A stretch of 64,000 nucleotides of DNA from a phage. Made by a program: the position numbers and the translations under genes. Location of the stretch: the sequence record PX423614.1; one strand, given 5' to 3'. A model generated the notes under the pieces. It saw only the letters and a program-made list of their open reading frames with translations, was not told the origin of the DNA and made no database searches. Position 1 is the stretch's first letter. Each line of letters opens with the position of its first letter. Shown here piece after piece: positions 9,869 through 37,378 of this stretch.

Positions 9869-9944
9869 GCACCCTTAGCTCAATGGACAGAGCAGCGACC
9901 TTCTAAGTCGTTGGTTACAGGTTCGAATCCTGTAGGGTGCACCA
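9869..9944 (+). tRNA. tRNA-Arg (anticodon UCU)
   Basis: cloverleaf: acceptor GCACCCT/AGGGTGC, D-stem GCTC/GAGC, anticodon stem-loop with TCT at positions 34-36, T-arm ACAGG-TTCGAAT-CCTGT, encoded 3' CCA. Confidence 0.85.
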
Positions 9945-15074: not shown

Positions 15075-15082
15075 AGGCGAAT

Positions 15083-16033
15083 ATGTCAATCTCCGCATCG
15101 ATTGCTCCGGTAACACCGGCAGAGGATTTCGGTGAGTCAGTGTTCAAAGGAAGAGCTTGCTTTGGTACTTTTAACTGTATGCACATGTATTCTGTTACAG
15201 ACATTAACGGTGAAAGTCGTAACCGAACAAGCCTTCGTGATAGAACTTCAGAAATTGAAGTTATTAACTTCTGGCCTCACAATTTTTATGGCGTACCAGC
15301 TAAAGATATCGAAAGAGCTTTGGTTGAAGCAACAGACATTTTTAACTCAATGTCTTGCTATAAAGATATGTTCTCTGTCACTTCGGTGAACTCTATTGCC
15401 GTGAACCTTCGAAACCATCCAGCAGACAAGGTGTTTACTGGACTAATGACCATCCGTAGCTATTTGGATGGTGATTTTAATGGAATGGAGTTCCTTCAGG
15501 AAGGCGTACAAGACAAGGAAGAGTTGCTTAAGCGACAACGAATCGGTTTAGCTCTACGCCTAGCTGGTTTAAGTCGTAACTTCTTTGGTCGCTGGTGTTA
15601 TAGTAATGACGTAGACTCAACTGATGAGTCAGCAGCGACTTATTTTGATGGTGACATGAGTGCAATTGCATTTCTGCCACTAATTTGCACCACTGATGAA
15701 TTTTCTGAAAACGTATGGGTTCAGAATGTGTTCGGTGTTGATGATAACCGAGATGGTTATGTACGAAACCATAATGATGGAGTTCTCCGTCGTATGGCAC
15801 GTCGTCGTGACCAAGACCCTGACCATTACGAGAGTATGAGTGAATGGTTACGTCTCTGGTCAACTTGTGCAGGTCACAAGAGAGAAGTATTAGATCAGCG
15901 TATGGATAGAATTACTGTTCGTAGTTTTATTGAACGTCTGATGCAAGCAGTACCTTCCTCAATGACACCAGAAGAAGCTGGTGCCCGTGTTGTTTCCCTT
16001 TTTGATGAACTCGTGGAGTATTACAATGACTAA
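15083..16033 (+). CDS. hypothetical protein (316 aa), ligase cluster
   Basis: long ORF; no recognisable motif. Confidence 0.55.
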   Translation: MSISASIAPVTPAEDFGESVFKGRACFGTFNCMHMYSVTDINGESRNRTSLRDRTSEIEVINFWPHNFYGVPAKDIERALVEATDIFNSMSCYKDMFSVTSVNSIAVNLRNHPADKVFTGLMTIRSYLDGDFNGMEFLQEGVQDKEELLKRQRIGLALRLAGLSRNFFGRWCYSNDVDSTDESAATYFDGDMSAIAFLPLICTTDEFSENVWVQNVFGVDDNRDGYVRNHNDGVLRRMARRRDQDPDHYESMSEWLRLWSTCAGHKREVLDQRMDRITVRSFIERLMQAVPSSMTPEEAGARVVSLFDELVEYYND

Positions 16034-16832
16034 GCGCGCTTTCCTTATTGGCTCTGACCCTGAAATGTTTGTTCGTACTGCTTCCGGTATTATCACCTCT
16101 GTGGCTGGTAAGCTGGGCTGTTCTAAAGATAATAAAATTGATCTGGCTCCTGATGTTCGTCTTCAAGAAGACAACGTTCTGGCTGAGTTTGATATTAACC
16201 CACAGAAAGGGTTTGAAGCGTTTGATGATAATATTCAGCGTGGTATTGATCTGACTAACAAAGTTCTCAATGAACGTGGCATGGAGGCAGCACTTGGGAT
16301 TAGCTCTCATGTGTTCACTTCAGAAGAACTTGAATCATTCCACCCGTCAGCTTTTGTATTTGGCTGTACTCCTGATTTCAATGCCTTCACTGGACAAAAG
16401 AACCCTTCACCAGTCGCAACTGATAAGGGTTTGCGTACTGCTGGGGGTCATGTGCACCTTGGTGTCTCCGGGACTTTAGAGATTACTCGACAAACTCAAA
16501 TGATGTTGGGTGTGTTGTGTGATTACTTCCTGTCCTTGCCAGCTGTGATCATGGATAAAGACACTCGTCGTAAAGAGTTGTACGGAAAGGCTTCTGCCAT
16601 TCGCTACAAAGATTACGGTATTGAATATCGTTCTCTTTCTAACTTCTGGATTGGTGATAAGTCCACTCGCAAGTTTGTTTATGAGCAAGTGGATAAGGTT
16701 GTTCAGGGTTGTGATATGGAAGTGTTGATGTCACTTCACTCTCGCCTTCCAATTGAAAAGCTTCACAACATCATCAACAGCAACGATGTTAAAGAAGCGG
16801 ATAAATTCTCCTCTAAACTCCAGATTGTATAA
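16026..16832 (+). CDS. amidoligase-like protein, paralog A
   Basis: shares four ordered motifs with the 17465-18565 product: GSDPEMF/GIELEVEG, LAEFxxxP/CELVxxxP, GGHVH/STHVH, YGIEYRS/GSVEFRIS; start 16026 has a GGAG RBS. Confidence 0.4.
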   Translation: MTKRAFLIGSDPEMFVRTASGIITSVAGKLGCSKDNKIDLAPDVRLQEDNVLAEFDINPQKGFEAFDDNIQRGIDLTNKVLNERGMEAALGISSHVFTSEELESFHPSAFVFGCTPDFNAFTGQKNPSPVATDKGLRTAGGHVHLGVSGTLEITRQTQMMLGVLCDYFLSLPAVIMDKDTRRKELYGKASAIRYKDYGIEYRSLSNFWIGDKSTRKFVYEQVDKVVQGCDMEVLMSLHSRLPIEKLHNIINSNDVKEADKFSSKLQIV

Positions 16833-16841
16833 GGTGATATT

Positions 16842-17468
16842 GTGAGCTTGTTAAGAGATTTTCAACACTATTATTGTGGAACATGGATTGCTCAGCGATC
16901 ACCTGATGGTAAAAACCTCCCTCTATATGTGCTTGATGTTCGTCAGCAAGGTAACTTTGATATCGACGACTATTCACACGACGCTGAAATGTCTTTAGTG
17001 TTTGAGGCGGAACGCTGGACTAAAAACTCTGAAGGTCAGTTTGAACGTCAGGTTGTTAGTAATATCCCAGTGTTTGATCACAGCCTCATTCTGGAGTCTC
17101 CAGATGTAGGATACCTTCAGCATGGTAATAACATGGTGAGCTGGACCCATATCAACCCTGTTCGTCAGCGAGCTAAAGGCTTGATGGGGAATAAACTTCG
17201 TGGTGCTCCGCCTTCTCTCGGACGTTCGATTCCGGGTGATTTGGTGTACAACCTGTTTAATCCAGAGTTTGAAGGGTTGGTTACTCGTTTCATCTATATC
17301 AATCCTGTCGATGGAAAAGTTTATTACAAAGGAGCTTACGTTGGAAACGTGCTTCTTGAAGCTGGTTATGGCGACAATGGTCGTCAATCTTTAAACCTTC
17401 TGGAGAAGTTCAAGCATATTTCTTCAGACCTGTCATCATATAATGTAGAGTTGGTGGAATCATTATGA
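16842..17468 (+). CDS. hypothetical protein (208 aa), ligase cluster
   Basis: ORF track; between the two amidoligase-like paralogs. Confidence 0.5.
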   Translation: MSLLRDFQHYYCGTWIAQRSPDGKNLPLYVLDVRQQGNFDIDDYSHDAEMSLVFEAERWTKNSEGQFERQVVSNIPVFDHSLILESPDVGYLQHGNNMVSWTHINPVRQRAKGLMGNKLRGAPPSLGRSIPGDLVYNLFNPEFEGLVTRFIYINPVDGKVYYKGAYVGNVLLEAGYGDNGRQSLNLLEKFKHISSDLSSYNVELVESL

Positions 17469-18565
17469 CAACCGTAGCACAAGTTTTTGGATACCGTAAC
17501 CCTCGCTTATCTGAACCGCATCCAAGTATTGCTTTTCAGTGTGGTGTTGGTATTGAGTTAGAAGTCGAAGGTACAACTGACATTGACGCTGATATGTGGG
17601 TTTGTACTGAAGATGGCTCTCTTCGTGATGGTTGTGAATTAGTATGTGCACGACCTTACAACGGTGAAGAACTACTTCGTGCTATTAACAATCTGAGTGA
17701 AGCAGTACAGGATTCCGGAGCCGAGGGAACTTGGCGCTGCTCCACTCACGTTCATATGGATATGCGTGACGCTGATAGTAATATCCTTAAGAAAGTTATT
17801 CTTGGATGGACGTTCTATGAAAAGATGATGTTCAAATGTTCTGGATACCATCGCTATCGTAGCAACTTCTGTCCAGCTTTTGCTGTCGTTCAAGCACAAG
17901 TTATGAATGCTTCGTCAGCGTTCAACCGAGACGGGGAAGCTTTCTTCCACTCTCTTGTTAATAGCTGGGATAAATATACCTCCCTTAATCTTTTGCCTCT
18001 ATCTCAATTTGGTTCTGTTGAGTTCCGTATCTCAGAGCCGAAGTGGAAAAAGAGCCAACTTCTGAATCTGGTCAACCGCTTCTTGGTTCTCAAGAAACTG
18101 GCTGTTGAATATGCAGATTTAGACAATGAAGCTTATGTTGAGAAGTTGAATGAGCTGCGCTTCGCTCCTATGATTCAACATCTACCCCTAGACTATACTC
18201 CAAGAGACAGCGATCTCACTGAAGGGTATCGTCTTGCTCGTGATATTCTCTTCTGTCGTGAGCAATCTGTAACTTTGGTTGGTCGTGTTCGTGTGCAACA
18301 GACTGGCCCTGATGGTGAAGTCCTTATCAACTTACGTGATATGAATGACTTCTATGGTTTCTTGGGATATGTGCGCGGTAATGCCAACAGTGTCTACGAA
18401 GAGATCATGACCTACTACACCCCTCAGATTGAAAGCACTCGAATCGCAACGGTTCGTGAAATTCGTCACATATTTGCATTGATGCGTGAATCAGGTAGCA
18501 GTGATGATAACGTCACTGGTTATATTCCAGACCATCTGGAAATGCAATTAGAACGACTGCTGTAA
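17465..18565 (+). CDS. amidoligase-like protein, paralog B
   Basis: E-x-E, E, H-x-H and E-x-R motif series shared with paralog A; this pattern is typical of glutamine-synthetase-like carboxylate-amine ligases. Confidence 0.4.
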   Translation: MTTVAQVFGYRNPRLSEPHPSIAFQCGVGIELEVEGTTDIDADMWVCTEDGSLRDGCELVCARPYNGEELLRAINNLSEAVQDSGAEGTWRCSTHVHMDMRDADSNILKKVILGWTFYEKMMFKCSGYHRYRSNFCPAFAVVQAQVMNASSAFNRDGEAFFHSLVNSWDKYTSLNLLPLSQFGSVEFRISEPKWKKSQLLNLVNRFLVLKKLAVEYADLDNEAYVEKLNELRFAPMIQHLPLDYTPRDSDLTEGYRLARDILFCREQSVTLVGRVRVQQTGPDGEVLINLRDMNDFYGFLGYVRGNANSVYEEIMTYYTPQIESTRIATVREIRHIFALMRESGSSDDNVTGYIPDHLEMQLERLL

Positions 18566-18642
18566 CACAACGGGCGCTCTTATACAGGGCGCATTTAAAG
18601 GTTAATTAGATGAAAGGGTTTACCCTTCAGGTGGATTAGAAA

Positions 18643-20676
18643 ATTTGTGGTATCGTATTAGCTGGCGGCAACATGACCTCAGCAGATTTGGACATTTTCA
18701 ACCAACTTCTGTATGCTGGTGTTTTCCGTGGACAGCACTCAACTGGTGTGTTTGGTCAGCGTAAAGGTGAAAAGCAAGTCTTCTCTTATAAAGAAGCTCT
18801 TCCTTCTTATGCTTTTATGCTCCAGACAGAATATACAAATATTACCAAAGGGCTTACGAACTACGTAGTTCCTCCTTCGTGGATTGTTGGTCACAGCCGA
18901 CATGCCACTCGTGGGGCTGTCAATGCTCGAAATGCTCACCCATTTACTCACGGGGATATTACTCTGGTTCATAATGGAACCCTGTTAGATCAAGATCTCC
19001 TTCCTGACAGTAAGCGTTTCGAAGTTGATAGTGAAAACATCTGCCACTCAATTAACACCATTGGAGCAGCAGAGACTATCCAAAAACTGGATGGTGCATT
19101 CACTTTGATTTGGCATGATGCTAAAGACAACACGCTTCACATTATCCGTAATGATGAGCGTCCTTTCCACCTAGCCCGCTGTGGTTTGGATTGGTTTGGA
19201 GCTTCTGAAGAAGCTATGCTTATGTGGATTTTAGAGCGTTCTAAGTCCCATAAGAACCGTATCAATGACCACTTCGAATGTAAAGTGGGAACTGAGTATA
19301 TCTTTGATGTGTCTAACAGTCGTATGACTCTGGTTCAAGAGGTGGAGCACACGCTTCCGGTTTTTACGGTAACGAGTCGCTGGGGCGGCTATTACTCGAA
19401 CTCCTCTCTTTATCAGAACCAACAGACAAACAAATCAAGCAGCAGCACAAGCGACATTTACGGAAACAAAGACGACAAGCCCGGCGTGACAAGCGGAGAC
19501 ATTCGTCGTCGTAAAGCGATTGAAGACCAGAACAAACTGGCTGCCGATCGTGGTCTTCCTTATCGTCGTGATGGTCGTGTGGATATTATTCCTCATGAGT
19601 TCCATGCTTATAACAACACAGATCGTGGTAAGATGGTTGGTTACATCTACGATGATAAAGCTCAAGAGTATGTCGAAGGGGATGTTCACAACGTAGCCAA
19701 AGATGAATATCTTAAGGCTCTTGAAAACCCAAAGGTAGTATATCGCGGGACGATTGCTTGTATCTCCGAAGTGGACAGTATGATTCGCCTCGTACTAACT
19801 TCAGGGCTGTTTGTTGATGCTACAGATAAGGAGCCTCAAAGCACTACTGCTGATTTTGATGATGATATCCCTTTTGATGCAGAGGACTCCTTCATCACTA
19901 AGAATGGTGTAGAAGTCACTCGTAAGTTCTGGGAATCTCACTCTCATGGTGACTGTGGTGGTTGTGATAAGCACATTGACTGGAAAGATGCTCGTAAGGC
20001 TGTGTTTGCTTATCAGGCATACTGGCATCCAGAATGCTTCGAAGCGTTATCTAAAACCTCTGAAGAGGAAGAAGATGTGCCTTTGGGTGTATGTGCTATC
20101 TGTGGTGAAGTCAAGACTGATTTCGAGTTTGACAACGAAATGAGTAAACTTCGTGGTGAAGACGTTTGTTATATCTGCTCCAAAGAAATCAAAGATAAAG
20201 TAAAGAATGTTACTCTATCTGAAGGTTATATTTGGACTAAAGCAGTAGACACAACCAACCCACGTCGTCCTGAAGTAGCTGTTCGTGTTGATGAACGTAT
20301 GCTTAGCCGTATGATTGTAATGGTCAGCTCAGCAAAACGTTCAGGGGATATTACACTTGCAGATGTTCCTAATTCGTATTTGGAAAAACGTGGTGGTGAT
20401 ACTTATGCCATCTCTGTTTATGGTCCAAAGAATTCCCCAAAGGAGGTACCCGCTGAGAAAGCGGAGACATTTCCAGAAAAGTCAACCTCTCTCCGAAAAA
20501 CAGTTGTCAGTTATGATGGACAACGAACAGCTGAGTTTACAAAAGCCCTCTGGACTTCAATTGGGTTTTGTGCAGTCTGTTATAAACAAATTCCGTGGCG
20601 TGATGCAGAAACTTGCTCACTGAACAAAGAAAACAGGGTGATCTGTAATTCAGATTACTGTAAAGGTAAACACTAA
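18643..20676 (+). CDS. class-II glutamine amidotransferase-like domain fused to Cys-rich zinc-ribbon-like C-terminal region
   Basis: in-frame upstream extension encodes CGIVLAGG, matching the N-terminal nucleophile block (M)CGIVG of PurF/GlmS/AsnB; RG..STG, GHSRHATRG, NAHPF and VHNG motifs; C-terminal CGGC, CAICGE, CYICSKE, CAVCYKQ clusters; first in-frame ATG is at 18673. Confidence 0.55.
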   Translation: MCGIVLAGGNMTSADLDIFNQLLYAGVFRGQHSTGVFGQRKGEKQVFSYKEALPSYAFMLQTEYTNITKGLTNYVVPPSWIVGHSRHATRGAVNARNAHPFTHGDITLVHNGTLLDQDLLPDSKRFEVDSENICHSINTIGAAETIQKLDGAFTLIWHDAKDNTLHIIRNDERPFHLARCGLDWFGASEEAMLMWILERSKSHKNRINDHFECKVGTEYIFDVSNSRMTLVQEVEHTLPVFTVTSRWGGYYSNSSLYQNQQTNKSSSSTSDIYGNKDDKPGVTSGDIRRRKAIEDQNKLAADRGLPYRRDGRVDIIPHEFHAYNNTDRGKMVGYIYDDKAQEYVEGDVHNVAKDEYLKALENPKVVYRGTIACISEVDSMIRLVLTSGLFVDATDKEPQSTTADFDDDIPFDAEDSFITKNGVEVTRKFWESHSHGDCGGCDKHIDWKDARKAVFAYQAYWHPECFEALSKTSEEEEDVPLGVCAICGEVKTDFEFDNEMSKLRGEDVCYICSKEIKDKVKNVTLSEGYIWTKAVDTTNPRRPEVAVRVDERMLSRMIVMVSSAKRSGDITLADVPNSYLEKRGGDTYAISVYGPKNSPKEVPAEKAETFPEKSTSLRKTVVSYDGQRTAEFTKALWTSIGFCAVCYKQIPWRDAETCSLNKENRVICNSDYCKGKH

Positions 20677-20687
20677 GAGGTATAGTT

Positions 20688-20921
20688 ATGGAAGTTCGTA
20701 AACTGATGTTGGATAACGTGGTAACTACCCGCCGTATTCCGATGACAAGCACAGGATGTGATAACCTCCGAGCAATTCAGAAGTGGATGCAAGAAGGTAT
20801 TGGGAAGCTGGTTGACTCTCCAGTAGAAATCCCTTTTCCAACCGTTATCAATAACGTGTTGGCTGACTATGTTAAAATGAAGGGGATTAAAGTTGAGCCT
20901 CATGTCAAGCAAGGGAGCTAA
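20688..20921 (+). CDS. hypothetical protein
   Basis: ORF track; GAGG RBS. Confidence 0.45.
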   Translation: MEVRKLMLDNVVTTRRIPMTSTGCDNLRAIQKWMQEGIGKLVDSPVEIPFPTVINNVLADYVKMKGIKVEPHVKQGS

Positions 20922-21123
20922 GCCTCACCTGACAATGCTGGAGTATCAACAACTCCGACTTCAACAACTGGTAACGGAGCAGCGAAAGCTGTATCCGTTT
21001 GCTTTTAACTTAATCGACTCTCCAAGCGATGCCCAAGAAGACGAAATGTTCGCTGAGTATTGGGCAATCGAAGCTAAAATTCAATCCTGTCGTAACGAAA
21101 TTCTTAAACTAAAAGGTATCTAA
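20893..21123 (+). CDS. hypothetical protein
   Basis: ORF track. Confidence 0.4.
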   Translation: MSLMSSKGAKPHLTMLEYQQLRLQQLVTEQRKLYPFAFNLIDSPSDAQEDEMFAEYWAIEAKIQSCRNEILKLKGI

Positions 21124-21125
21124 AA

Positions 21126-22361
21126 ATGACTACTCGTATCCGTGTTCTTCCGTATGGCCCGTCTGATTCTGTTAACGCTCTGGTATCTGCTATCAGTGAT
21201 ACTATCCGTGATGAACGCATCAATGCTAACGTGATGGGGCTTCTTTCAGAGAATAGCCGCTGGCGTTCTCGTGAAGGTGATGTGGTTGTTAACTACGGGA
21301 ACCGTCGCTATCCTGAATCATTCTTTGGTTCTGCAACCGTCCTTAACCGTACCGCAGCCTTATATATGGCAGCGAACAAACGTCGTGCTTTCAGTGTGAT
21401 GGACCAAGCAGGTGTTAAAACTGTGGAATACACAGATGTTCAAGAGACTGCTCAGGAGTGGTCAAACACTGGTAATATTGTGTATGAGCGCCATGAGCTG
21501 ACTGGTCACTCTGGTTCGGGCATTGTTGTTGTAGAACCGGGTGATTCAATTGGTCAAGCTGAACTGTACACCAAAGGTATTCAAGGCCCACGTCGTGAAT
21601 GGCGTGTCCATGTGTTCAAAGGTGTAATCACCTATGTTCAGAAGAAGATTCGTCGCAATGGTTATCGCGAAGACCCTAACTATCGTGAAGATATTCGTAA
21701 TCACCACACTGGCTGGGTTTACTCAAGCTCCTTCACAGATGCTCCGAATGACGCCTCTCTGATCAATGCAGTGAAAGCTGTTGAATCAATGGGTCTGGAT
21801 TTCGGTGCAGTTGATATTATCACCAAAGGTCAAGAAGCGTGGGTACTGGAAGTTAATACAGCACCGGGCCTGACTGGTACAACTCTGGATACTTACCGTC
21901 ATAACATTCTTGAGTTTGTTAAAGCTCAAAACCCTCTCTATACTCCTCAGTATAAAGTGGTTTACCAGACTCCGATTGAAGATGGAGACGGTGAGTTGGT
22001 GGATGATATTGAAAGTGCTGATGATGAAAACTTTGCACTGGAAGGACAAGTAGCACAGCCGATTGATTCAGTTGATGTGGTTCCTGAAGAAATGCAACTG
22101 GAAGGTCAGATGAATACTCAAACTATTCGTAATGCACCTACTGGCTACACTTTGTCTCGTGGCTACTGGATTGCAAATATCCGTCATGTCCACAACAACC
22201 TGCAACCGAATGCAATGTCTGCCAATGTCATCCTGTTCTGTGATGGTCGTAACTTCTACCGCAGTGGTTGGAACGTTCCGGTCAATCCAGTCCAGATTCA
22301 TAACCCTCGCAAGTTAGAGTCTGTCAATGTTGAAGGTAGCGAAGTAGCAGTAACTCTGTAA
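21126..22361 (+). CDS. ATP-grasp family ligase (RimK-like)
   Basis: GSGIVVV, E-W-R-VHVF and the DFGAVDII...VLEVNTAPGL block typical of ATP-grasp enzymes such as RimK, glutathione synthetase and D-Ala-D-Ala ligase. Confidence 0.6.
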   Translation: MTTRIRVLPYGPSDSVNALVSAISDTIRDERINANVMGLLSENSRWRSREGDVVVNYGNRRYPESFFGSATVLNRTAALYMAANKRRAFSVMDQAGVKTVEYTDVQETAQEWSNTGNIVYERHELTGHSGSGIVVVEPGDSIGQAELYTKGIQGPRREWRVHVFKGVITYVQKKIRRNGYREDPNYREDIRNHHTGWVYSSSFTDAPNDASLINAVKAVESMGLDFGAVDIITKGQEAWVLEVNTAPGLTGTTLDTYRHNILEFVKAQNPLYTPQYKVVYQTPIEDGDGELVDDIESADDENFALEGQVAQPIDSVDVVPEEMQLEGQMNTQTIRNAPTGYTLSRGYWIANIRHVHNNLQPNAMSANVILFCDGRNFYRSGWNVPVNPVQIHNPRKLESVNVEGSEVAVTL

Positions 22362-22387
22362 TTAAATTAAACAAAAAGGAATTTGTA

Positions 22388-22630
22388 ATGTTGTCTATCG
22401 AAGATTTGATCAGCCGTGGAATGACCGAAGAAAAAGAGCCTCTGATTGTAGGCTCTCGTAAAGCTATCAACCAACTCTGTGAAGAGTTCGGTATCACAAA
22501 TAAGAGAATGATTGGTAATCAGTTCTCTGCAATCATCACCTTCCTCAAACGAGGTGATAAATGTTCAATGGAATGTGCTGAGCGTATCATCGCAATTGCA
22601 CAAGCAGATAAGGGAGTAACAAGTCTGTGA
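22388..22630 (+). CDS. hypothetical protein
   Basis: ORF track; AAAGGAA RBS. Confidence 0.45.
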   Translation: MLSIEDLISRGMTEEKEPLIVGSRKAINQLCEEFGITNKRMIGNQFSAIITFLKRGDKCSMECAERIIAIAQADKGVTSL

Positions 22631-22812
22631 ATAAATACACAATCATGTTTCGTACAATGTCAGCAGAAGGAAATATTCAATCTCTGGACATTCAAGCAGA
22701 TCGCTTTGAATCACTTGGAACAAGTGTTAACTTCTTCCGAGGTACAGAGCTAGTGGGTACATTCCAATCTGATGTGTTGACTGGTGTGATCAAACACTTC
22801 GAAGTAGAATAA
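22627..22812 (+). CDS. hypothetical protein
   Basis: ORF track. Confidence 0.4.
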   Translation: MNKYTIMFRTMSAEGNIQSLDIQADRFESLGTSVNFFRGTELVGTFQSDVLTGVIKHFEVE

Positions 22813-22869
22813 TTTGCTTTAGCCTCTTCGAAAGAGGAGGCTAGTTCGAATTTAACTAGAGGTTGTAAA

Positions 22870-23286
22870 ATGGTTAATAATAAACTGGATATGTTTAAAA
22901 GTCGTATCTTAGATGTAGAGTATTCCAAAAACCTCTTTGAGAAGCACAAGAAAGAGGCAAAGGAAGAGTTAGAAAGTCTTCTGAAAGATGAAGAGATTCC
23001 TCTCTTTGATCGTTGGTGCTTGTTTCTGGAACACGGTGACTTATTTCCTGTAGCTTCAAGTGTAATTAGTAGAGCTGTTACAAGTGCAGTGGAAGGTTTT
23101 TATGACTTGGAAAGATACCGAACTTATATCTTCTCTGATATTTTTGAAGAATACTGGTTTGGTGAAAAAGAGTCAATTTCTGATGAAACCAAGAAAGCCA
23201 TTAAGGGATGTTTTGAAGAATTCCCTGAAAAGCCAATCCGATCAATCATCTTCTCTGGATATTCTGGTTTCCAACATGATTGGTAA
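22870..23286 (+). CDS. hypothetical protein
   Basis: ORF track; GAGG RBS. Confidence 0.5.
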   Translation: MVNNKLDMFKSRILDVEYSKNLFEKHKKEAKEELESLLKDEEIPLFDRWCLFLEHGDLFPVASSVISRAVTSAVEGFYDLERYRTYIFSDIFEEYWFGEKESISDETKKAIKGCFEEFPEKPIRSIIFSGYSGFQHDW

Positions 23287-23292
23287 GCAGCC

Positions 23293-23490
23293 ATGAAAAA
23301 GATTCTATTTTTCCTCTCCTTATTCAGTGTGTCAGCGATCGCCGCTGATGAATGCATCTCTAAAGATTCAGGGAGAGGTCAAATCATAACTCAATGCGGC
23401 AGCCATGTAACAGTTGTCGATTCTATAACTCAAACAGTTCTCGTGTGTAACGGGACTTCTTGTACAAAAGAAATTTTAAACAAAAGGTAA
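23293..23490 (+). CDS. small secreted protein
   Basis: signal peptide MKKILFFLSLFSVSAIA. Confidence 0.45.
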   Translation: MKKILFFLSLFSVSAIAADECISKDSGRGQIITQCGSHVTVVDSITQTVLVCNGTSCTKEILNKR

Positions 23491-23494
23491 TGTA

Positions 23495-23926
23495 ATGTCT
23501 GATAAAGTATTAGTTGCAACGTATGGTTCTCTTCGTAAAGGTCAACACAACCACGCTATCAATGCTCGTGCAGGTGGTGTGTCTATTGGTGAAGGGTGGA
23601 CAGTAAACAACTGTAACCTGTATCAGTATTGCACAGCATACTTCCCAAGTGTATCTTTGGAGCATGACAGCAATGGTAAGCCTGTTCGTGTAGAAGTCTT
23701 TGAAACAACCCAAGCTGGTCTGGAAGGTCCGTATGACGGTCTGGAAGGTCATCGTGGTAATGATAACCCATACACCTTTTACAAGCGTACACTGATTCCA
23801 GTATTATTGGACAGCGGTGAAACTGTGGAAGCGTGGATTTATCACATCGACGAAGAACAAGATGTTCTGGTTGAATCTGGTGACTGGACAGCATATCTGG
23901 CAGGTGAGAAGGATGACAGTAACTGA
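23495..23926 (+). CDS. gamma-glutamyl cyclotransferase-like (AIG2/GGCT family) protein
   Basis: N-terminal YGSLRKG motif, LEGPYDGLEGH...Y.R and C-terminal AWIY match the AIG2/GGCT fold signature. Confidence 0.6.
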   Translation: MSDKVLVATYGSLRKGQHNHAINARAGGVSIGEGWTVNNCNLYQYCTAYFPSVSLEHDSNGKPVRVEVFETTQAGLEGPYDGLEGHRGNDNPYTFYKRTLIPVLLDSGETVEAWIYHIDEEQDVLVESGDWTAYLAGEKDDSN

Positions 23927-24154: not shown

Positions 24155-25945
24155 ATGTCAAAGATCATTTTGGGAGACACAGGCTGTAAAGAGTGTATCT
24201 CTCATGGTCGTGATAAGACCCGCAATCACATGATTCTCTTCCGAAATGAAGAGTCCGGTGAGGAGTGGGGTTCATGTAACAGATGTGGTGCGTATGAAAT
24301 CTTCGAGAAAGGAATGACGCCCACTCCTAATGAAAAGAAAGAGCTGTCCCCTGAAGAACTCCGAGAAGTCTTAGACGATTGCTTAGAGCTTCCTCAGGGA
24401 GAGTTGACCCGTCGCTTAATTCCTAAAGCTGTATCTGAACGCTATGGATGCCGTATTGGTTTAAGTCAAACAGACGGTCAAACTCCTGACAGCTACTTCT
24501 TCCCTCGCGAACGTGATGGGAATATTGTTGGATATGAAGTAAAACTTCTAGACAGCAAGAAATTCTATTATGTAGGTAATGTGAAAGAAGCCGACTTATT
24601 TGGTATGGCTCAAGCACAACGTGGCGATGTTTACAATAAGAAGCTCTTCATCTTTGAAGACCCACTCTCTTGTATGTCTGGATTCCACGTACTTACTGCG
24701 TTCACAAACGCAACTAATATCAAACCTGCTTGTGTCTCTCTTCCGTTCGGTGCAGGTTCAATCTCTTCTGTGTTGTCAAGAAATCGTGATTTTATTAATG
24801 GTTTCGAGGAGATTGTACTCTGCATGGACAATGATGATGCAGGCGAGATTGCATTGACTAAAGGTCGTTCTCTGTACCCACATGTCAAGTTTGCAAGAAT
24901 TCCAAAAGGTACGTTTACTTACAACGGACAGGAAAAGGAAATCAAAGATGCAAACGACATGTTACTGGCAGGGAGAGGTCAAGAGCTTTTCAATAATCTG
25001 AAGTATTCAGCTAAGCGGGAATCTCCTGCTGGAGCTGTTACAGTTTTTGATTGTCTTGAAGACGCTCTGAAGAAAGCGGAATGGGGTATCCCTTATCCGT
25101 GGAAAACTCTCAATGACATGACCTTTGGTATTCGTTGGGGGGAGATGGTTGCAATCGGCGGTGGTGTTGGTTCAGGTAAAACCTTAATCGCACACGAACT
25201 GGTAGCATGGCTTTGCCTTGAGCATGGTTTTAATGGTGGTGGCTTCTTCTTGGAAGAGAAGGTAGGCATGTCTGTTAAGAACATTGCTGGCAAGTCTGCA
25301 TCTGTTCCATTTCACCGACCGGATGTTGAGTATGAAGAAAGTCAGCTACGAGATGAAGCACTTCGATACGCTGATAAGTTTTTCTTGTACGACAACTTTG
25401 GACAGAATGAGTGGGAAGACATTAAGCAGTGTATTCGCTTTTGGGTAGTTGAGAATCAATGTAAGTTTATCATCCTTGATAACATCACTGCATTGGTATC
25501 TCACTTAACTCCATCCGAAGTGAATACAGAAATCAGTAAGATTGCTTCAGAGCTTGCTGGTATGTGTAAGGAATTAGACTTCACTGCTTTTGTGTTATCT
25601 CACTTGAATGCTCCGGCGGGCGGTGCCCCTCACGAAGAAGGTGGTCAGGTTAAAGAAGTACAGTTTACTGGCTCACGTTCATTAATGCGCTGGTGTCAAT
25701 GTATTATCGGTTTCGAACGTAATAAACAAGCGGATGGGTTAGGTAAAAACTTGTCAATCATACGTCTGCTCAAAGAGCGTAACTATGGACAGACGGGGGT
25801 TTGCTATACCAAATATATTAACGAAACAGGTCGTCTTGTAGAACGAGAAGATCATGAAGTTGATGAAGATAATCCGTTTACAGTCACCAACGGAGAAGAT
25901 GCAGCTTCCTTACTTTCACAAGAAGGGGAGGCACGTCCGTGGTAA
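24155..25945 (+). CDS. bifunctional DNA primase/helicase (T7 gp4-like)
   Basis: N-terminal Cys4 zinc ribbon (CKEC...CNRC), primase-type acidic motif MDNDDAGE, Walker [10 protein letters not shown], Walker B IILDN. Confidence 0.8.
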
Positions 25946-26487
25946 AGAAACTGTATGCGTTTGATATTGAAGGTGATAACCTCTATGACGGTATTCAGAA
26001 TGTCTGGTGTATATGGATATTTGATGTACTGTCTGGAGAACGGTGGGGGTATCGCCCTCACCAAATTGAAGAAGCACTACACAAACTGAAAGAAGCTGAT
26101 GTAGTAATAGGTCACAATATTATTGATTTTGACCTTCCTGCTTTGTTTAAATTCTACTCTCATGTGATACCTTTTCGTTTTAATGTCTTTGATACCCTGT
26201 GCCTGAGTCGATACCTCAAGCCTGACCGTATTGGTGACAGTCCAGAATACCCCAAAGGCGACCCTAGACATGGCCCTCGCGGTCATGGCCTCAAGCAATG
26301 GGGCGAATTTCTGGGAGAGCTGAAGGGTGATTATGGCGAACAGGAAGAAGCATGGGATGCATTCACTGAAGACATGTTCACATATTGTGAGCAAGACGTT
26401 AACTTGACAGTTAAGGTTTACATGTGTCTTTGCCAAATGGCAGGATTTGATTATAGAAATCCCCCATCTCTCAACTGGAAAATGTAG
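25939..26487 (+). CDS. DNA polymerase family A 3'-5' exonuclease domain, encoded as a separate gene
   Basis: Exo I FDIEGD, Exo [10 protein letters not shown], Exo III YCEQDV; aligns with T7 DNA polymerase residues ~1-190; GTG start overlapping helicase stop; TAG stop at 26485. Confidence 0.75.
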
Positions 26488-26489
26488 AA

Positions 26490-27962
26490 ATGATTAAGAT
26501 TCCATTGTCTGAATTGAACCTTCAAGAAGGAGAAGCCCTCAGTGTAGGGCTTGACCTGATTCGTAATTTGATCAGAGATAACGTAGTCCCTGATGGCATC
26601 TATCCTGTTATTGCAGGTGGTGCTATCCGTGATACGTTCTTCCAAAATAGAACTCCGAATGATGTTGATATCTTCCTAGTTCAAGGAGGGTTTCGTTGGA
26701 ACACTCGTCAGGAAAACAGCCCTGCTAACGTAGGTAATGCTGCACTTTTCCTTGACAACTTCTTATCTTGGACAGAAAGTAAGGGGCTTCAGGTTACATC
26801 TCGACTAATTCAGCCTGTTAACGGGACAACCTATGCTGAAGCGCTTTTCACTTTCCAAGAGATTCTGGAAATTGAGATTGATCAAGTTAAAATCCAGATG
26901 ATGATTAATCTACCTTTGGATATGGATACTTTAAGCCGTCGCTTCCCTATGATCTGTCAAGGGTTTATGACTCTTGGTAATCTGTATGTGTCAAACGAAG
27001 GTTTGTTTGCAATGTCATACACTCGTGACATTCCTGTGGTATCTAGTCGTGAAATGAAGTACGTTCACAAGAAGTGGCCTGAAGCAACTGTTGCAGTTTA
27101 TAGCAGTTCTACCGAATATATGCACCTTGCAATGGGAGCTTTCGGTGAGCCAGAAGTTCACCTGATTAGTGATTTAGTTGGACCTATGGCTGGTGTAAAT
27201 TTATATCAGAATCAGCGTCGTCATTATACCCTGAAGATGATGGAAACTATATTAAACATTCCTCAGGAAAGGGGTCGTAGTTATCTGGACGAGGAAGTTA
27301 ACCTACAGACAGAATGGTCTAGTGGATTAACCACTATAGGTGCTGAAGCAATCACGCAGCCTTGGACTCCGGGAACTAACAGACGAGATCTTCAAGCTTT
27401 TAATGAAGAAACTTCTCGAACAGTTCGAGGAGGTGTTGTAGGGTATAACGTACAACCTCATGAAAGACCTCGTGACACTTTCACTGGCAGTTTTGGTAGT
27501 GCACGCTCTTCTGGAGTGGATACTCGTACATGGCATGTCCAAGGAGGAACTGCTCGTCCTATTCCCTCTCCGTCAATGGATGATTTGCAGCGTTCTCGTC
27601 GTTCATGGGAAACAGTAAGCTCTGTTGTTCAGGGTCTACGTGCTAGAGATATTGAACGTGTAGAAGTTGGTGATTTGCCAACCCCTACAGAAGATCGAGT
27701 ATCAGCTATAGCGGCTCGTGAAGCTGCTCATATTGGTTTTGCATCATTAACTAATGACGCTAACGAAGCTCCTCGACCTGTTGGTCGTCGTAATGGTCTA
27801 GCTCACTCTGACACTGCACTTGGTGCAGAACTACGAGCAGCAGCTCGTGAGCTATCTGGTGAGCTTCACAACAACCTAGCAGGTGTTACACTATCTCGTG
27901 AAACAGCTCGTAATATGATTAATAATTTGGCATCATCTGTACAAGGAAACAGAAACTCATGA
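26490..27962 (+). CDS. polymerase-beta superfamily nucleotidyltransferase with disordered Arg/Ser/Thr-rich C-terminal half
   Basis: VIAGGAIRD...NDVDIF matches the GG...DxD head-domain signature of CCA-adding/poly(A) polymerase-type nucleotidyltransferases. Confidence 0.45.
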   Translation: MIKIPLSELNLQEGEALSVGLDLIRNLIRDNVVPDGIYPVIAGGAIRDTFFQNRTPNDVDIFLVQGGFRWNTRQENSPANVGNAALFLDNFLSWTESKGLQVTSRLIQPVNGTTYAEALFTFQEILEIEIDQVKIQMMINLPLDMDTLSRRFPMICQGFMTLGNLYVSNEGLFAMSYTRDIPVVSSREMKYVHKKWPEATVAVYSSSTEYMHLAMGAFGEPEVHLISDLVGPMAGVNLYQNQRRHYTLKMMETILNIPQERGRSYLDEEVNLQTEWSSGLTTIGAEAITQPWTPGTNRRDLQAFNEETSRTVRGGVVGYNVQPHERPRDTFTGSFGSARSSGVDTRTWHVQGGTARPIPSPSMDDLQRSRRSWETVSSVVQGLRARDIERVEVGDLPTPTEDRVSAIAAREAAHIGFASLTNDANEAPRPVGRRNGLAHSDTALGAELRAAARELSGELHNNLAGVTLSRETARNMINNLASSVQGNRNS

Positions 27963-28492
27963 GTCTTTTAGGTTCTCAAGAATTACACAGCGTTATCGAT
28001 AATGGCTTTTTAGATGCGGAGCATAAATATGTTAACGCTGCTAGCGTGGATATCCGTATTGGTGATACTATCCTTGTTGAAGAACAGGCTGATGGTATTG
28101 TTGACATTGATGCTAAAGAAAACCTCAAGTGGAAAGAAGTGAAAATCCCTGAAGATGGCATTGTCATTACTCCGGGACAGTTCTTCTTAGCTCACTCTAT
28201 GGAAGAATTTAACCTTCCAGACAATATTTCAAGTCTGTTTGTACTCCGCTCCTCAATGGCTCGTTGTGGTTTAAACCACTTACATGCTGGGTGGGCTGAT
28301 GCAGGGTTTAACAGCAGTAAGCTAACCTTTGAGTTCCATAACGTTACCCACAATCACAGCTTACGAGTTCGTGCTGGGATGCGTGTTGGTCAAATGGTTA
28401 TGTTTGAACACTCTCACGCTGGTGATGATTCCTATGCAGTGAAGGGTCGTTATAATAACTCTGATGGGGTTGTTGCTTCTAAAGGCGTATAA
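27959..28492 (+). CDS. dcd: dCTP deaminase (Dcd)/dUTPase superfamily protein
   Basis: aligns with E. coli Dcd: ASVDIRIG, ITPGQFFLAHS, RSSMARCGL, AGWADAGF, catalytic-Glu block TFEF, GMRVGQMV. Confidence 0.65.
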   Translation: MSLLGSQELHSVIDNGFLDAEHKYVNAASVDIRIGDTILVEEQADGIVDIDAKENLKWKEVKIPEDGIVITPGQFFLAHSMEEFNLPDNISSLFVLRSSMARCGLNHLHAGWADAGFNSSKLTFEFHNVTHNHSLRVRAGMRVGQMVMFEHSHAGDDSYAVKGRYNNSDGVVASKGV

Positions 28493-28966: not shown

Positions 28967-29314
28967 ATGAAACAGGAGAGAGTTATGTTAGATTTGAGTA
29001 AAGTGGCCCCGCCATCTGAAGAGATTAGCAAAGCTAAAGTTATGCAGCAGTTCTATCATCGTGATATGCTTGGTCGTTATATCAAGAATCGTGATGTTGT
29101 TGCATGGTCTATTGGAAATCAAGGTTATCTTCTCAAAGTGTTGCAAGTTACTGGCTCAACAGCCAAGCGAGTCAAAGTCTATGACCCTGAAATGGGGCGT
29201 TCTAAATCAGTAGACCCTCAGAATTGCATTGTTATCACACAACAGGTCATGGATAACATTGCTCGTAATGTAGCTAATTCAACTAACTTAGAAGGGGATG
29301 CACCTAATGCATAA
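28967..29314 (+). CDS. hypothetical protein
   Basis: ORF track; AAATGTATATA motif about 25 bp upstream. Confidence 0.45.
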   Translation: MKQERVMLDLSKVAPPSEEISKAKVMQQFYHRDMLGRYIKNRDVVAWSIGNQGYLLKVLQVTGSTAKRVKVYDPEMGRSKSVDPQNCIVITQQVMDNIARNVANSTNLEGDAPNA

Positions 29315-29873
29315 TAATGTCTTCGACTTACCTGAACTAACACGAGTGGGTTCTAGCAACCCATTCTCTACTACTGACTCTTCTATCTCTCGTCTTGAGG
29401 GAATGAATAAACTGATTAGCGGTAACAGCTTAGAACACATCTTGTGTGGTGTGCAAGCTAACCTTGAACTTCTACACATCAAAGCAAAGAACTACCACTG
29501 GAACGTCTCTGGAGCTGGTTTCCAAGGTGTTCATGGTATGTTCGATGAGTTAGAAGATTATGCTCGTGAGGCAGGCGACCGAATAGCAGAGCGTATGCGC
29601 TTTCACTGTGTTAAAGTGGATGCTACTGCTAGTAACTATTTAGGTCATGCTTGGTTCCGAGAAGGTAACGCTGATCTCGACATGGACGGTATGCTTTCCG
29701 ACATGTGCATGACTCTGATGTGTATCATTGAAAAGATGGACGAGTTTGATTCAGACTTGTGCACTTATCCAGTTGACCAGAGTATGCTTCAAGAAATTAA
29801 TGAAGGTCTTGGCAAGTTCTGCTACTTCGTCAAGAGCAACATGTCCCACTCCAGTGGTGACGTGTCTTACTAA
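29298..29873 (+). CDS. Dps-like ferritin-superfamily protein
   Basis: HWNVSGAGFQGVHGMFDELEDYAREAGDRIAER matches the Dps signature H-W-N-V-x-G...H...F.E...E; alternative internal start at 29403 possible. Confidence 0.55.
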   Translation: MHLMHNNVFDLPELTRVGSSNPFSTTDSSISRLEGMNKLISGNSLEHILCGVQANLELLHIKAKNYHWNVSGAGFQGVHGMFDELEDYAREAGDRIAERMRFHCVKVDATASNYLGHAWFREGNADLDMDGMLSDMCMTLMCIIEKMDEFDSDLCTYPVDQSMLQEINEGLGKFCYFVKSNMSHSSGDVSY

Positions 29874-29930
29874 TCAAACCTCCGCCCTGTCTCTTTGTTT
29901 AAGAGGTGGGGCGAACTTCTTTATAAGGAT

Positions 29931-35075: not shown

Positions 35076-36770
35076 GTGATGGATAACCCTGATAAGTTAC
35101 CTTTCATAACGGAGATGACAGTCGCTGATATAATCTCAAAACAGGCGAAGCATGGAGTCAACTTCAACAGAAGAAACGCTCGGTGGTTTGTTCACCTTCT
35201 CAAAGAGATTATTGTCAATATTGATAAAGAACTGATTCCTCTCCTCCCCAAAATGCGGGTGGATGGTTCAACTTATTCCAAACCTTTTAAGAAGTCCGGT
35301 GCTTTACAGAAGTGGCCTCAACTCTATTGTGATAGGGTTGGTCTTAAAAGAGAAGATATCGGTGGGGCGTTTACTTGCGTTGAGTATGTAGACTTTGACC
35401 CATCAAAAGATGCACGTATCAAAGAAGCCTTGATGGATGAAGGTTTTATACCTCCAGAGTGGAATTATTCTAAGAAACCTTGGAATACTTTTGAAATTCG
35501 TAAAGCTATGAAGAAGTATGGTACATACTCTGCATGGTATTCTGCTTGGATTCGAGGTAACGCTAAAGAGAAACAGACAGCAGAGATGATAGATGCTGAT
35601 ATCCGAAGGTTTTTGGATAAACACTTCCGTTATCATACTGTCAATTATATGAAAGCCTATGTCAGCGGTTTAGGTCTTAACCCTAACAGGAAGAAGCCTG
35701 TAACCTTTGATGAAATCAAAAAAGTTTTGGCTACATCAAACAAGTGGCCTACAGCCCCTACAAACCTTGAGGAGACTCTTGAAGAGGGGCTTGGGGGTGA
35801 GCTAGGGGGTGTAGGAAGTTTGCTTAAGAGACGCGTTGTAGCGGCTCACAGGCTAGGTTTGATTAGCGGGCTTATCGACAAGGAACGTAAAGATGGTAAG
35901 TTGTCCGCCGAAGCTAATAGCTGCGCTACTCCGACATTTCGTTTTAAACATCGCATTGTTGTTAATATTCCTTCTCGCGGTTTGTTTGGTCACGAGTGCC
36001 GCAGTCTTTTTCAATCTGACTATTCCTCAGACGATAGTCATAACCATCCTTTCATCATTACCAACCATATCCCTGATGGGTGTTACGTACGAAAGGGTAC
36101 TAACATTATCTATGAAATGGGAAAACCGGGCAAGAAAGACAAACCAATAGGTGCTTATAAATTTTATGTACCTGCTGGTCGTGAAGTCTTCTTAGGTTAT
36201 GATGGCTCTGGTCTTGAGCTGAGGATGCTCGCTCACTACCTTATCAAAGAGTGTCGTGAGATGCTCGCTGAAGCAGAGCGGGAAAACAACCCAGCTAAGA
36301 AACGGGAAGCTGAACGCGGTCTAGCTTCTGCTGTTATGTACAGAGATATTCTTTTAGAAGGAGATATTCACTCACATAACCAAAAACTTGCTGGCCTTCC
36401 TACTCGTGATAATGCTAAAACATTTATCTACGCATTCAACTACGGAGCTGGTGACGCTAAGTTAGGAAGCATCGTAGGTGGTGGCTCTGACGAAGGGGCT
36501 ATCATGAGAGCAAGATTCTTAGCAGAGAATCCTTGTATTGCAATCCTTATTGAACGTATGACAGAGAAAGCACAAAGTGGATATATCTACGGTGTGGATG
36601 GACGTCGTATTACAATGAGAAGAGATGCAACTGGAAAGGTTATGGTCCATAAAGCCTTAAATACGCTCCTACAGAGCGCTGGGGCGATTGTTATGAAGTA
36701 TGCAATGCTATTCCTCAATAAATGGATTGAGCGTGATGGTGTTCGTTGTGCGAAGGTTATCGACATGCAT
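35076..36770 (+). CDS. DNA polymerase family A polymerase domain, exon 1 (thumb, palm, fingers through motif-C His)
   Basis: aligns with T7 DNA polymerase and Klenow: motif A DGSGLELR, motif B RDNAKTFIYAFNYGAG, KALNTLLQSAGA; exon ends at the motif-C His codon CAT at 36768-36770. Confidence 0.8.
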
Positions 36771-37378
36771 AAACTTTCATTGTGCATGTAAAAGTTGGTG
36801 AACTCGGTGAAACCCTACCATTAAGTTGGGGGCAATACCGAGCTAAGCTATTAGGAGATGATATGGCTAAGAAAACTCTTGTTTTGGAAACAACCGAAAC
36901 AGGGTGTATCATCCCTATCTCACACAAACTTAACAAAGATGGTTATTTCAGAAAAGTAATAGATGGCAAATGGGTCATGTATCATAGATATGTTTGGGAA
37001 GAATCTTTTGGTTCTATTCCTGATGGTTATGAAATAAATCACAAATGCAAGAATAGGGCTTGTTCCAATCTTGAGCACTTAGAAATGATTGAAGGTTCAG
37101 AACATGCAATAGAATCAAACACTGGAAGAAATGGAGATAGACAAGAAGCTGCAAGGCTTTATTGGCTAGAAACAGAATGCTCTGGTGTACATCTTGCAGA
37201 GAAGTTTGGTGTGAGCTTCGGAATCGGTTGTAGATGGATTCGGAAGTGGAAAGTGTAGAGACTATCCTAAGGGAGTAGGGGGTTAACAGGGAAACCCTCG
37301 AAGCGCCAACAACAGCAAATTAGCTATGCTGTTATGATATAGTCCGATACCCGAAGTAATTTGGGAATAACATAAATG
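36771..37378 (+). mobile_element. group I intron interrupting the polymerase gene at motif C
   Basis: 5' exon ends in U that can pair with intron GUGCAU to form P1 with a U-G wobble; intron ends in G; R-like AGACTA and S-like GATATAGTCC core elements; exon 2 resumes with DEGQFTVHRDDV matching Klenow DELVFEVHKDDV. Confidence 0.65.
36864..37258 (+). CDS. intron-encoded HNH homing endonuclease
   Basis: GYEINHKCKNRACSNLEHLE HNH motif; TAGGAG RBS; located inside the intron. Confidence 0.65.

Follow-up and report, generated by a model that had tools for sequence, protein, structure and literature searches.

The gene at positions 26490-27962 (plus strand) of a 64,000-nucleotide stretch of phage DNA from sequence record PX423614.1 (hereafter the window) encodes a nucleotidyltransferase (NTase) whose folded core is predicted to have the fold of the Pol-beta superfamily, in the form of a class II-type head domain. 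Conservation within its family suggests that the nucleotide- and metal-binding half of the active site has been kept and that the remainder of the catalytic centre has been rebuilt. The protein is not a CCA-adding enzyme. We tentatively interpret it as a lineage-specific, stand-alone class II-type head that is joined through a short linker to a tail of about 205 residues, predicted to be disordered, rich in arginine and free of lysine, and that may carry out untemplated nucleotidyl transfer at 3' ends.

The fold assignment is based on AlphaFold models. The model of the domain alone (residues 1-232) has a mean predicted local distance difference test score (pLDDT) of 89.3 and a predicted template modelling score of 0.85, while the full-length model, built with the family alignment, is confident for the N-terminal domain only. 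The modelled alpha/beta fold superposes on solved NTases, and its best structural matches in Foldseek are class II CCA-adding enzymes and bacterial poly(A) polymerase I (PAP I; PF01743). Nearly all of the top 30 matches in the Protein Data Bank (PDB) are class II, with the same ranking for the full-length model, although only about 150-160 of the 232 core residues superpose on class II structures. In the model, the hG[GS] turn is formed by A-G43-G44 between strand 37-42 and helix 44-51, the [DE]h[DE]h pair by D58-V-D60-I on strand 58-65, and a beta-hairpin by strands 122-130 and 133-143. An earlier note, made from the sequence alone, had placed the protein in a CCA-adding or poly(A) polymerase-like context and had proposed a Foldseek classification as a check. 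This placement is right for the head domain, to which both the Foldseek ranking and motif A apply, and for the head domain only.

The residues that define motif A are under strict conservation. The two motifs on which the earlier note relied, VIAGGAIRD (residues 40-48) and NDVDIF (residues 57-62), are not chance matches, because G43, G44, R47, D48, D58 and D60 are invariant in all 97 distinct family cores that cover them. The core as a whole evolves under strong purifying selection, with a median ratio of nonsynonymous to synonymous divergence (dN/dS) of 0.07 among eight Suseptimavirus genes. Further invariant residues of the family are F62, I125, Q136, P153, Y191 and K195, with Q136 and P153 found in 98 of 98 distinct cores and Cys at position 156 in 87 of them; W94, Y115 and M138 are nearly invariant. 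Position 124 is always acidic (Asp in 67 cores, Glu in 31), as is position 188, and position 127 is Glu in 85 of the 98.

For the second cluster of carboxylates, whose absence from a structure prediction the earlier note would have taken as refuting its assignment, the picture is mixed: position 124 is always Asp or Glu, but Q136 lies opposite an invariant Asp of the nearest relatives and Gln101 opposite a class II Glu. The latter correspondence comes from the hidden Markov model (HMM) alignment to PDB entry 6ibp, in which Gln101 takes the place of the third carboxylate; 66 of the 98 cores have Glu there. A third metal ligand, if there is one, could be E124 or E127 on the first strand of the hairpin, to judge from their conservation.

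Those nearest relatives are small stand-alone NTases of Autographiviridae, which we call phrog_1614-type (phiKMV ORF16, LUZ19 gp16, LKD16 ORF16, phiAS7 gp3, Ahp1 gp19 and PP2 gp18). PHROG 1614, which includes LKD16 ORF16 and phiAS7 gp3, ranks second among the PHROGs matched by the window protein and by distant members of its family, and Foldseek against viral models returns many small stand-alone "PolyA_pol head" proteins of podophages (E from 1e-9 to 1e-4). A profile of ten phrog_1614-type sequences, with GG..RD, D.D, F115, D133, D150, N154 and R182 invariant, served as an intermediate between the family and class II. In hhalign it matches the NTase family over 137 columns (probability 95%, E 3e-8) and class II with a probability of 97% (E 6e-10), its FDxxhNQ falling on the class II motif B RRDFTxNA. 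Motif B of LKD16 and phiAS7 had been guessed by eye; it is absent from single-sequence hhalign comparisons and becomes significant only with the ten-sequence profile. Both families share a small stand-alone class II-type head with GG..RD, P.D.D, a conserved Tyr and Phe and a beta-hairpin, and the genes of both lie in a DNA replication module. The phrog_1614-type proteins, of 170-255 residues, lack the long disordered tail. Their usual neighbours also differ, a ligase or a full-length polymerase being found in place of the exonuclease subunit and the dCTP deaminase: in eight of ten phages examined the gene adjoins an annotated DNA polymerase or ligase gene or is separated from it by at most two small open reading frames (ORFs). 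We found no characterisation of phrog_1614-type proteins in the literature.

Outside motif A, the similarity to class II enzymes is difficult to follow. The class II motif GGxVRD...DxD is shared and reads GGAIRD...DVD here. It is the only part that was aligned when the family profile was run with hmmsearch against PDB sequences (best match 6ibp, E 0.0016) and in hhalign against a five-sequence class II profile (25 columns, probability 84%, E 7e-6). Comparisons with single class II sequences by hhalign likewise recovered motif A only, and a forced global alignment was unreliable and was not used. The window protein has no Pfam match at E of 1 or below, PolyA_pol included, and a Kuravirus homologue scores 19.1 bits against PolyA_pol, below the cut-off of 23. 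A phmmer search of the protein against the PDB and an NCBIfam scan gave no match. A precomputed flag for PF26128 on many Kuravirus homologues was not reproduced in a Pfam scan of one of them.

The other class II motifs are replaced or undetected. Motif B (RRDxxxN), which serves ribose recognition, is not present: D92 and N96 of class II correspond to D150 and N154 of the phrog_1614-type proteins and to P153 and C156 here. No counterpart of motif D (EDxxR), the protein template for C and A, was detected in profile-profile comparison, and a family helix R-[ED]-x-x-Y-x-x-K-K (residues 187-195) may occupy its place, with Tyr at the position of the class II Arg. The AlphaFold models show none of the helical domains (neck, body and tail) with which tRNA or RNA is bound. 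By these criteria the protein is not a class II CCA-adding enzyme or poly(A) polymerase. RlaP (PF10127) and MenT-type NTases, which attach one nucleotide or a few to the 3' ends of RNA or tRNA, belong to other families without detected sequence relationship; their partners are RNA ligases or antitoxins, whereas the NTase described here is accompanied by replication genes.

The C-terminal part of the protein is of a different nature. As the earlier note had recognised, some 200 residues are rich in Arg, Ser, Thr and Gly and probably disordered: residues 286-490 contain 25 Arg (12%), 11% Ala, 9% Ser, 9% Gly, 8% Thr and no Lys, and pLDDT stays below 50 for residues 269-490. This tail is not featureless, since its last 45 or so residues are nearly invariant in the genus and are predicted, with low confidence, to be helical. 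Within the genus the tail is under weak purifying selection (dN/dS 0.33) and every indel is in frame. Synonymous divergence (dS) of core and tail is discordant, at 0.43 and 0.05, respectively, between the window and SU7, and at 0.08 and 0.37 between the window and ECBP2, and we therefore conclude that recombination has occurred within the gene. Between genera the tail following core residue 232 ranges from 39 to 258 residues. Its similarity across genera is not significant (phmmer and jackhmmer on a tiny database; best E 0.008), and cross-genus motifs seen by eye (SFxxAxG, RW, NLA and a C-terminal helix of EEVR type) were dropped on account of that value.

The scarcity of lysine is shared by the family. 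In 26 non-redundant members the tails contain 0.6% Lys and 10.0% Arg, the cores 2.3% and 5.9% (Fisher p 2e-15), and the average of the window proteome is 5.8% for each. As the GC content at third codon positions of the tail is 0.19, mutational bias would favour Lys codons, and the avoidance of Lys therefore looks selected. The tail is no simple polycation: its net charge is about 0 in the window protein, a Kuravirus member has -10, and distant members, which are short, have +3 to +6. The C-terminus of E. coli PAP I is basic and disordered too, and is likewise rich in Arg (its last 70 residues include 13 Arg, for a net charge of +6); unlike PAP I, the NTase tail is free of Lys and not net basic. 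Two further ORFs of the window, at 51490-52458 and 54340-55371 (minus strand) in the structural region, are also poor in Lys (1.2% and 0.6%), but unlike the NTase they are not rich in Arg.

The window belongs to a phiEco32-like E. coli podophage of the genus Suseptimavirus. At the DNA level its NTase gene is 98.3% identical to that of Escherichia phage vB_EcoP_PAS59 and 94-95% identical to those of EK010, SU7 and ECBP2, all of which are Suseptimavirus, in the subfamily Gordonclarkvirinae of phiEco32-like prolate podophages. The RefSeq product name in EK010, SU7 and ECBP2 is "nucleotidyltransferase". The protein matches PHROG 12715 over its full length (E 1.8e-165, residues 1-483) and has kept the neighbourhood of that family, to which phiEco32 gp73, SU10 gp74, EK010 gp088, SU7 gp072 and the homologues of Bas86-92 belong. 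Protein identity is 84-98% within Suseptimavirus (84.6% to TH34) and about 33% to Kuravirus over residues 1-283; among Gordonclarkvirinae the synteny is identical, whereas tail length and tail sequence differ between genera. The SU10 homologue is an early gene product and was detected by one peptide in proteomics (PMC4281155), and a supplementary figure of the 2025 paper on the BASEL collection displays the conserved locus (PMC11990801). Gene and neighbourhood are thus already known from public annotation and literature, and we do not present them as novel; a functional study of the family was not found in the literature.

The distribution of the family is narrow. Word-indexed protein searches with the full protein or residues 1-290 recovered only relatives at least 83% identical, and more distant members came within reach only with a profile of four lineages. 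In a set of 50,697 isolated phage records, the sole carriers are 98 Escherichia and Shigella phage records, those listed being phiEco32-type Gordonclarkvirinae, and the same 98 were recovered whether the window protein or distant metagenomic members served as query. When residues 1-290 were searched exhaustively with HMMER against 1.84 billion cluster representatives, only 29 clusters matched; in these, similarity is limited to about residues 1-210, and none of them is a canonical CCA-adding enzyme or poly(A) polymerase. A match to a protein of 3044 residues in the same search was discarded as repetitive and unrelated.

The NTase gene sits in a compact replication block (Table 1). As had been noted earlier, it directly follows the gene for a polymerase exonuclease: its ATG start lies 2 nucleotides past the stop codon of an ORF of 182 codons that matches DNA_pol_A_exo1 (PF01612, E 3.2e-5) and the PHROG "DNA polymerase exonuclease subunit" (E 2.8e-67). 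Such a gap makes translational coupling of the two genes likely. At the other end, the NTase stop codon and the start of a dCTP deaminase gene overlap (ATGA; PF22769, E 1.5e-34), and upstream a primase/helicase gene overlaps the exonuclease gene. All three E. coli phage genera, Suseptimavirus, Kuravirus and Nieuwekanaalvirus, have kept the order primase/helicase, exonuclease subunit, NTase and dCTP deaminase with codons that abut or overlap, and so have uncultured relatives that are only about 30% identical.

Table 1. Positions of the NTase gene, its protein regions and its neighbours in the window (residue numbers are those of the NTase)
Feature	Position	Strand	Basis or remark
DnaB-type primase/helicase, first gene of conserved block	24155..25945	+	Pfam, PHROG, synteny
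DNA polymerase A 3'-5' exonuclease subunit, directly upstream	25939..26487	+	Pfam, PHROG
Complete NTase coding sequence, 490 residues plus stop	26490..27962	+	ORF, phrog_12715, annotation of relatives
Folded NTase core, residues 1-232, predicted class II-type head with lineage-specific additions	26490..27185	+	
Motif A, first half, G43-G44-A-I-R47-D48 (GGxxRD, nucleotide-binding turn)	26616..26633	+	Invariant; aligns to class II GGAVRD
Motif A, second half, D58-V-D60 (metal-binding carboxylate pair)	26661..26669	+	Invariant; profile alignments
Beta-hairpin, residues 124-143, with always-acidic 124, invariant I125 and invariant Q136 (26895-26897)	26859..26918	+	Model strands, family conservation
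F152-P153-M-I-C156-Q at the position of class II motif B (RRDFTxNA)	26943..26960	+	hhalign, conservation
Family signature helix S185..P197 (S-x-R-[ED]-x-x-Y-V-H-K-K-W-P), Y191 and K195 invariant	27042..27080	+	Model helix 186-195, conservation
Linker or partly ordered region, residues 233-285, ending W276-S-x-G-L	27186..27344	+	pLDDT 35-74, dN/dS 0.16; conserved in E. coli phage genera only
Predicted disordered tail, residues 286-490, 25 Arg, 0 Lys, rich in Ala, Ser, Gly and Thr	27345..27959	+	pLDDT, composition, dN/dS 0.33
Hypervariable stretch, residues 299-327, with most in-frame indels of close relatives	27384..27470	+	Alignment
C-terminal ~45 residues, nearly invariant in genus, candidate docking module	27825..27959	+	Alignment; low-confidence helices 443-462 and 470-485
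dCTP deaminase, start overlapping NTase stop	27959..28492	+	Pfam, PHROG

A promoter-like site (23778-23807) lies upstream of the block, and the strongest terminator-like hairpin of the region (29883-29913, plus strand; 13-bp stem with 7 GC pairs) follows directly after a Dps/ferritin-like gene (29298-29873). The hairpin probably closes the transcription unit of the replication genes. In the scans, neither the promoter-like nor the terminator-like sites bracketing the block exceed chance as a class, nothing above chance occurs inside the NTase gene, and an Rfam scan of 22-32 kb gave no match. The gene for phiEco32 gp79 lies 3 kb upstream of the NTase homologue in the same orientation and is a middle gene (PMC8948821), from which we infer middle-class expression of the block.

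On the reading that we tentatively favour, the NTase would be expressed within the phage block for replication and supply of deoxynucleoside triphosphates (dNTPs). Its core would bind a ribonucleoside triphosphate or a dNTP together with Mg2+ through the GGxxRD turn and D58/D60, and would move a nucleotidyl group, untemplated, onto the 3'-OH of a nucleic-acid end. Because the core is without the neck, body and tail domains that give nucleotide choice and a grip on tRNA, the choice of acceptor would presumably fall to the disordered tail or to proteins of the replication module that act as partners. Catalytic activity, a nucleic-acid 3' end as acceptor and a role of the tail are the parts of this reading that we infer. 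An RNA 3' end is a possible acceptor and the one we place first; a DNA 3' end extended with a dNTP is rather doubtful, to the same degree as a reaction that concerns no polymer at all (nucleotide binding, a small molecule or a protein), and any other target is unlikely.

Several observations weigh against this reading. In the alignment of the family with the phrog_1614 profile, D133, D150 and N154 correspond to Gln136, Pro153 and Cys156, and because two Asp and an Asn are thereby replaced, the catalytic centre is remodelled and the protein may be no polymerase at all. The core is acidic (net charge -10, isoelectric point 4.7) and the tail has a net charge of 0, so that there is no obvious surface for binding nucleic acid. 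This last point is weak evidence, as the head and neck of E. coli Cca are equally acidic and charge is uninformative; we accordingly abandoned it as a discriminator of nucleic-acid and small-molecule enzymes. Adjacency of genes in strongly colinear phage genomes, moreover, shows co-expression with replication functions, not a shared function or mechanism, and the literature was found to hold no biochemical data for either the NTase family or phrog_1614.

The replaced residues would be explained if the protein were a pseudoenzyme, that is, a nucleotide-binding but non-polymerising sensor or scaffold in the replication and dNTP module with the tail as its tether. It would have retained the NTP-binding half of its site and lost processive transfer. 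Such a regulator is unlikely in our judgement, yet less so than the other alternatives. It accounts for an invariant Gln136 and Pro153 and a near-invariant Cys156 where the relatives have an invariant Asp, Asp and Asn, and for Gln101 at the third-carboxylate position of class II in Suseptimavirus. The new invariants Y191 and K195 and the acidic position 188 suggest a new function. A modular tether would agree with intragenic recombination between core and tail and with a tail that is long, disordered and ends in a module conserved in the genus. The invariance of GG, R47, D48, D58 and D60 under strong purifying selection is, on the other hand, typical of active NTases. The third ligand could come from the adjacent strand of the hairpin, where position 124 is always acidic and most members have E127, and a Gln is still able to ligate Mg2+. 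Repair of tRNA ends, which the earlier note had suggested on the strength of the phage tRNA in the window, would have the NTase restore damaged 3' ends while infection proceeds or once a defence that targets tRNA has struck. The nearest solved structures of the core are indeed CCA-adding enzymes, motif A has the class II form, the name is used in GenBank and proteomics annotations, and analogous small Autographiviridae proteins have been named tRNA nucleotidyltransferase on HHpred grounds. The suggestion is not supported by a closer look at the gene. Motif B is replaced by P153/C156, motif D is undetectable, the neck, body and tail domains are missing, and PolyA_pol of Pfam either falls short of its threshold or gives no match. 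The only tRNA of the phage, tRNA-Arg(TCT), lies at 9869-9944, ends in ...AGGGTGC-A-CCA and so encodes its own CCA; it lies among early genes, 16.5 kb from the NTase gene and unlinked to it. In the complete annotation of EK010 there is no RNA ligase, polynucleotide kinase/phosphatase or other RNA-repair gene, the context of the NTase gene is replication and dNTP supply rather than translation, and the host already has Cca. With CCA encoded, RNA-repair genes lacking and motifs and domains missing, CCA repair is a minority hypothesis and improbable.

About equally improbable is an involvement in DNA modification and evasion of restriction, in which NTase and dCTP deaminase would make or install a protective non-canonical nucleotide, as speculated in the BASEL paper. 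Gordonclarkvirinae are reported to be remarkably resistant to restriction-modification (RM) systems without known modification genes or inhibitors, and that unexplained resistance has been taken to point to the NTase locus (PMC11990801). The window contains 12 EcoRI, 17 EcoRV, 6 EcoKI and 101 EcoP1I sites, which is near the expected numbers, so that site avoidance cannot explain resistance to these specificities, and this counts in favour of modification. The gene is also tightly coupled to replisome genes. Motif B discriminates ribose from deoxyribose, and its loss could relax selectivity for the sugar or the nucleotide. Against modification stands the class II head itself, which is used by no known DNA-modification pathway; the dCTP deaminase, moreover, fits ordinary dTTP supply, since the phage has ThyX and a deoxynucleoside monophosphate kinase, and DNA containing deoxyuridine is unlikely. 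We found no report of modified bases or of restriction-refractory virion DNA, nor in-vitro restriction or modification data for these phages, in the literature, and their genomes are deposited as ordinary sequence records. The phrog_1614-type relatives of the family occur in T7/phiKMV-like phages, which to our knowledge are not known for modified DNA. Slightly less probable still is a bolder variant in which the remodelled site and the coupling to exonuclease subunit and dCTP deaminase reflect a new replisome-associated activity, for instance one that uses dNTPs to tag or modify ends or bases of the phage DNA and that would underlie the RM resistance, with the Arg-only tail as replisome tether. 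A second-messenger synthase, or an anti-defence enzyme making or consuming signalling nucleotides, is the least probable of all and very unlikely. Four family members have no match at E of 1 or below to the PADLOC models of defence-system NTases, class II enzymes ranked above CD-NTases in the fold search, the GGxxRD motif has the class II form, and the gene lies in the conserved replication block and not in a variable accessory region.

Some further features of the window and its relatives were recorded. Several restriction motifs depart from expectation in positions 1-64000: CCWGG (Dcm/EcoRII) is absent against 83 +- 10 expected, CTGCAG (PstI) is absent against 17, GGATCC occurs once against 9, GATC 126 times against 241, and CAGCAG is over-represented (85 against 35). 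The family A DNA polymerase is split into the exonuclease subunit (25939-26487) and a polymerase subunit (35079-36791) about 8.6 kb apart, with nucleotide-metabolism genes, and in EK010 also HNH endonuclease genes, between them. Uncultured phiEco32-like relatives (a contig of 81.6 kb from SRR18162984 and others) have the same replication block and, downstream, the anaerobic ribonucleotide reductase NrdD and its radical-SAM activase, neither of which is listed in the EK010 annotation. Upstream of the replication genes lies a large cassette (~13857-23926, plus strand) that is conserved also in distant relatives and that, by the EK010 annotation, encodes a COOH-NH2 ligase, an amidoligase, a GlmS-like glutamine amidotransferase, an ATP-grasp enzyme, a gamma-glutamyl cyclotransferase and two large hypothetical proteins; a link between this cassette and the Lys-free tail of the NTase would be pure speculation.

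The value of these results is a sharper annotation. A protein labelled "class II CCA-adding enzyme domain" need not be concerned with tRNA CCA repair, and the label is not to be read in that sense here. The family has a remodelled catalytic centre, and the composition of its tail is apparently under selection. The NTase is among the very few enzyme-like, lineage-defining genes of Gordonclarkvirinae without a known role, in a group of phages that is used in therapy studies, and a published puzzle, the strong RM resistance of these phages without known protection genes, points at its locus. Since tractable members that grow on E. coli K-12 exist (Bas86-88), the question is directly testable.

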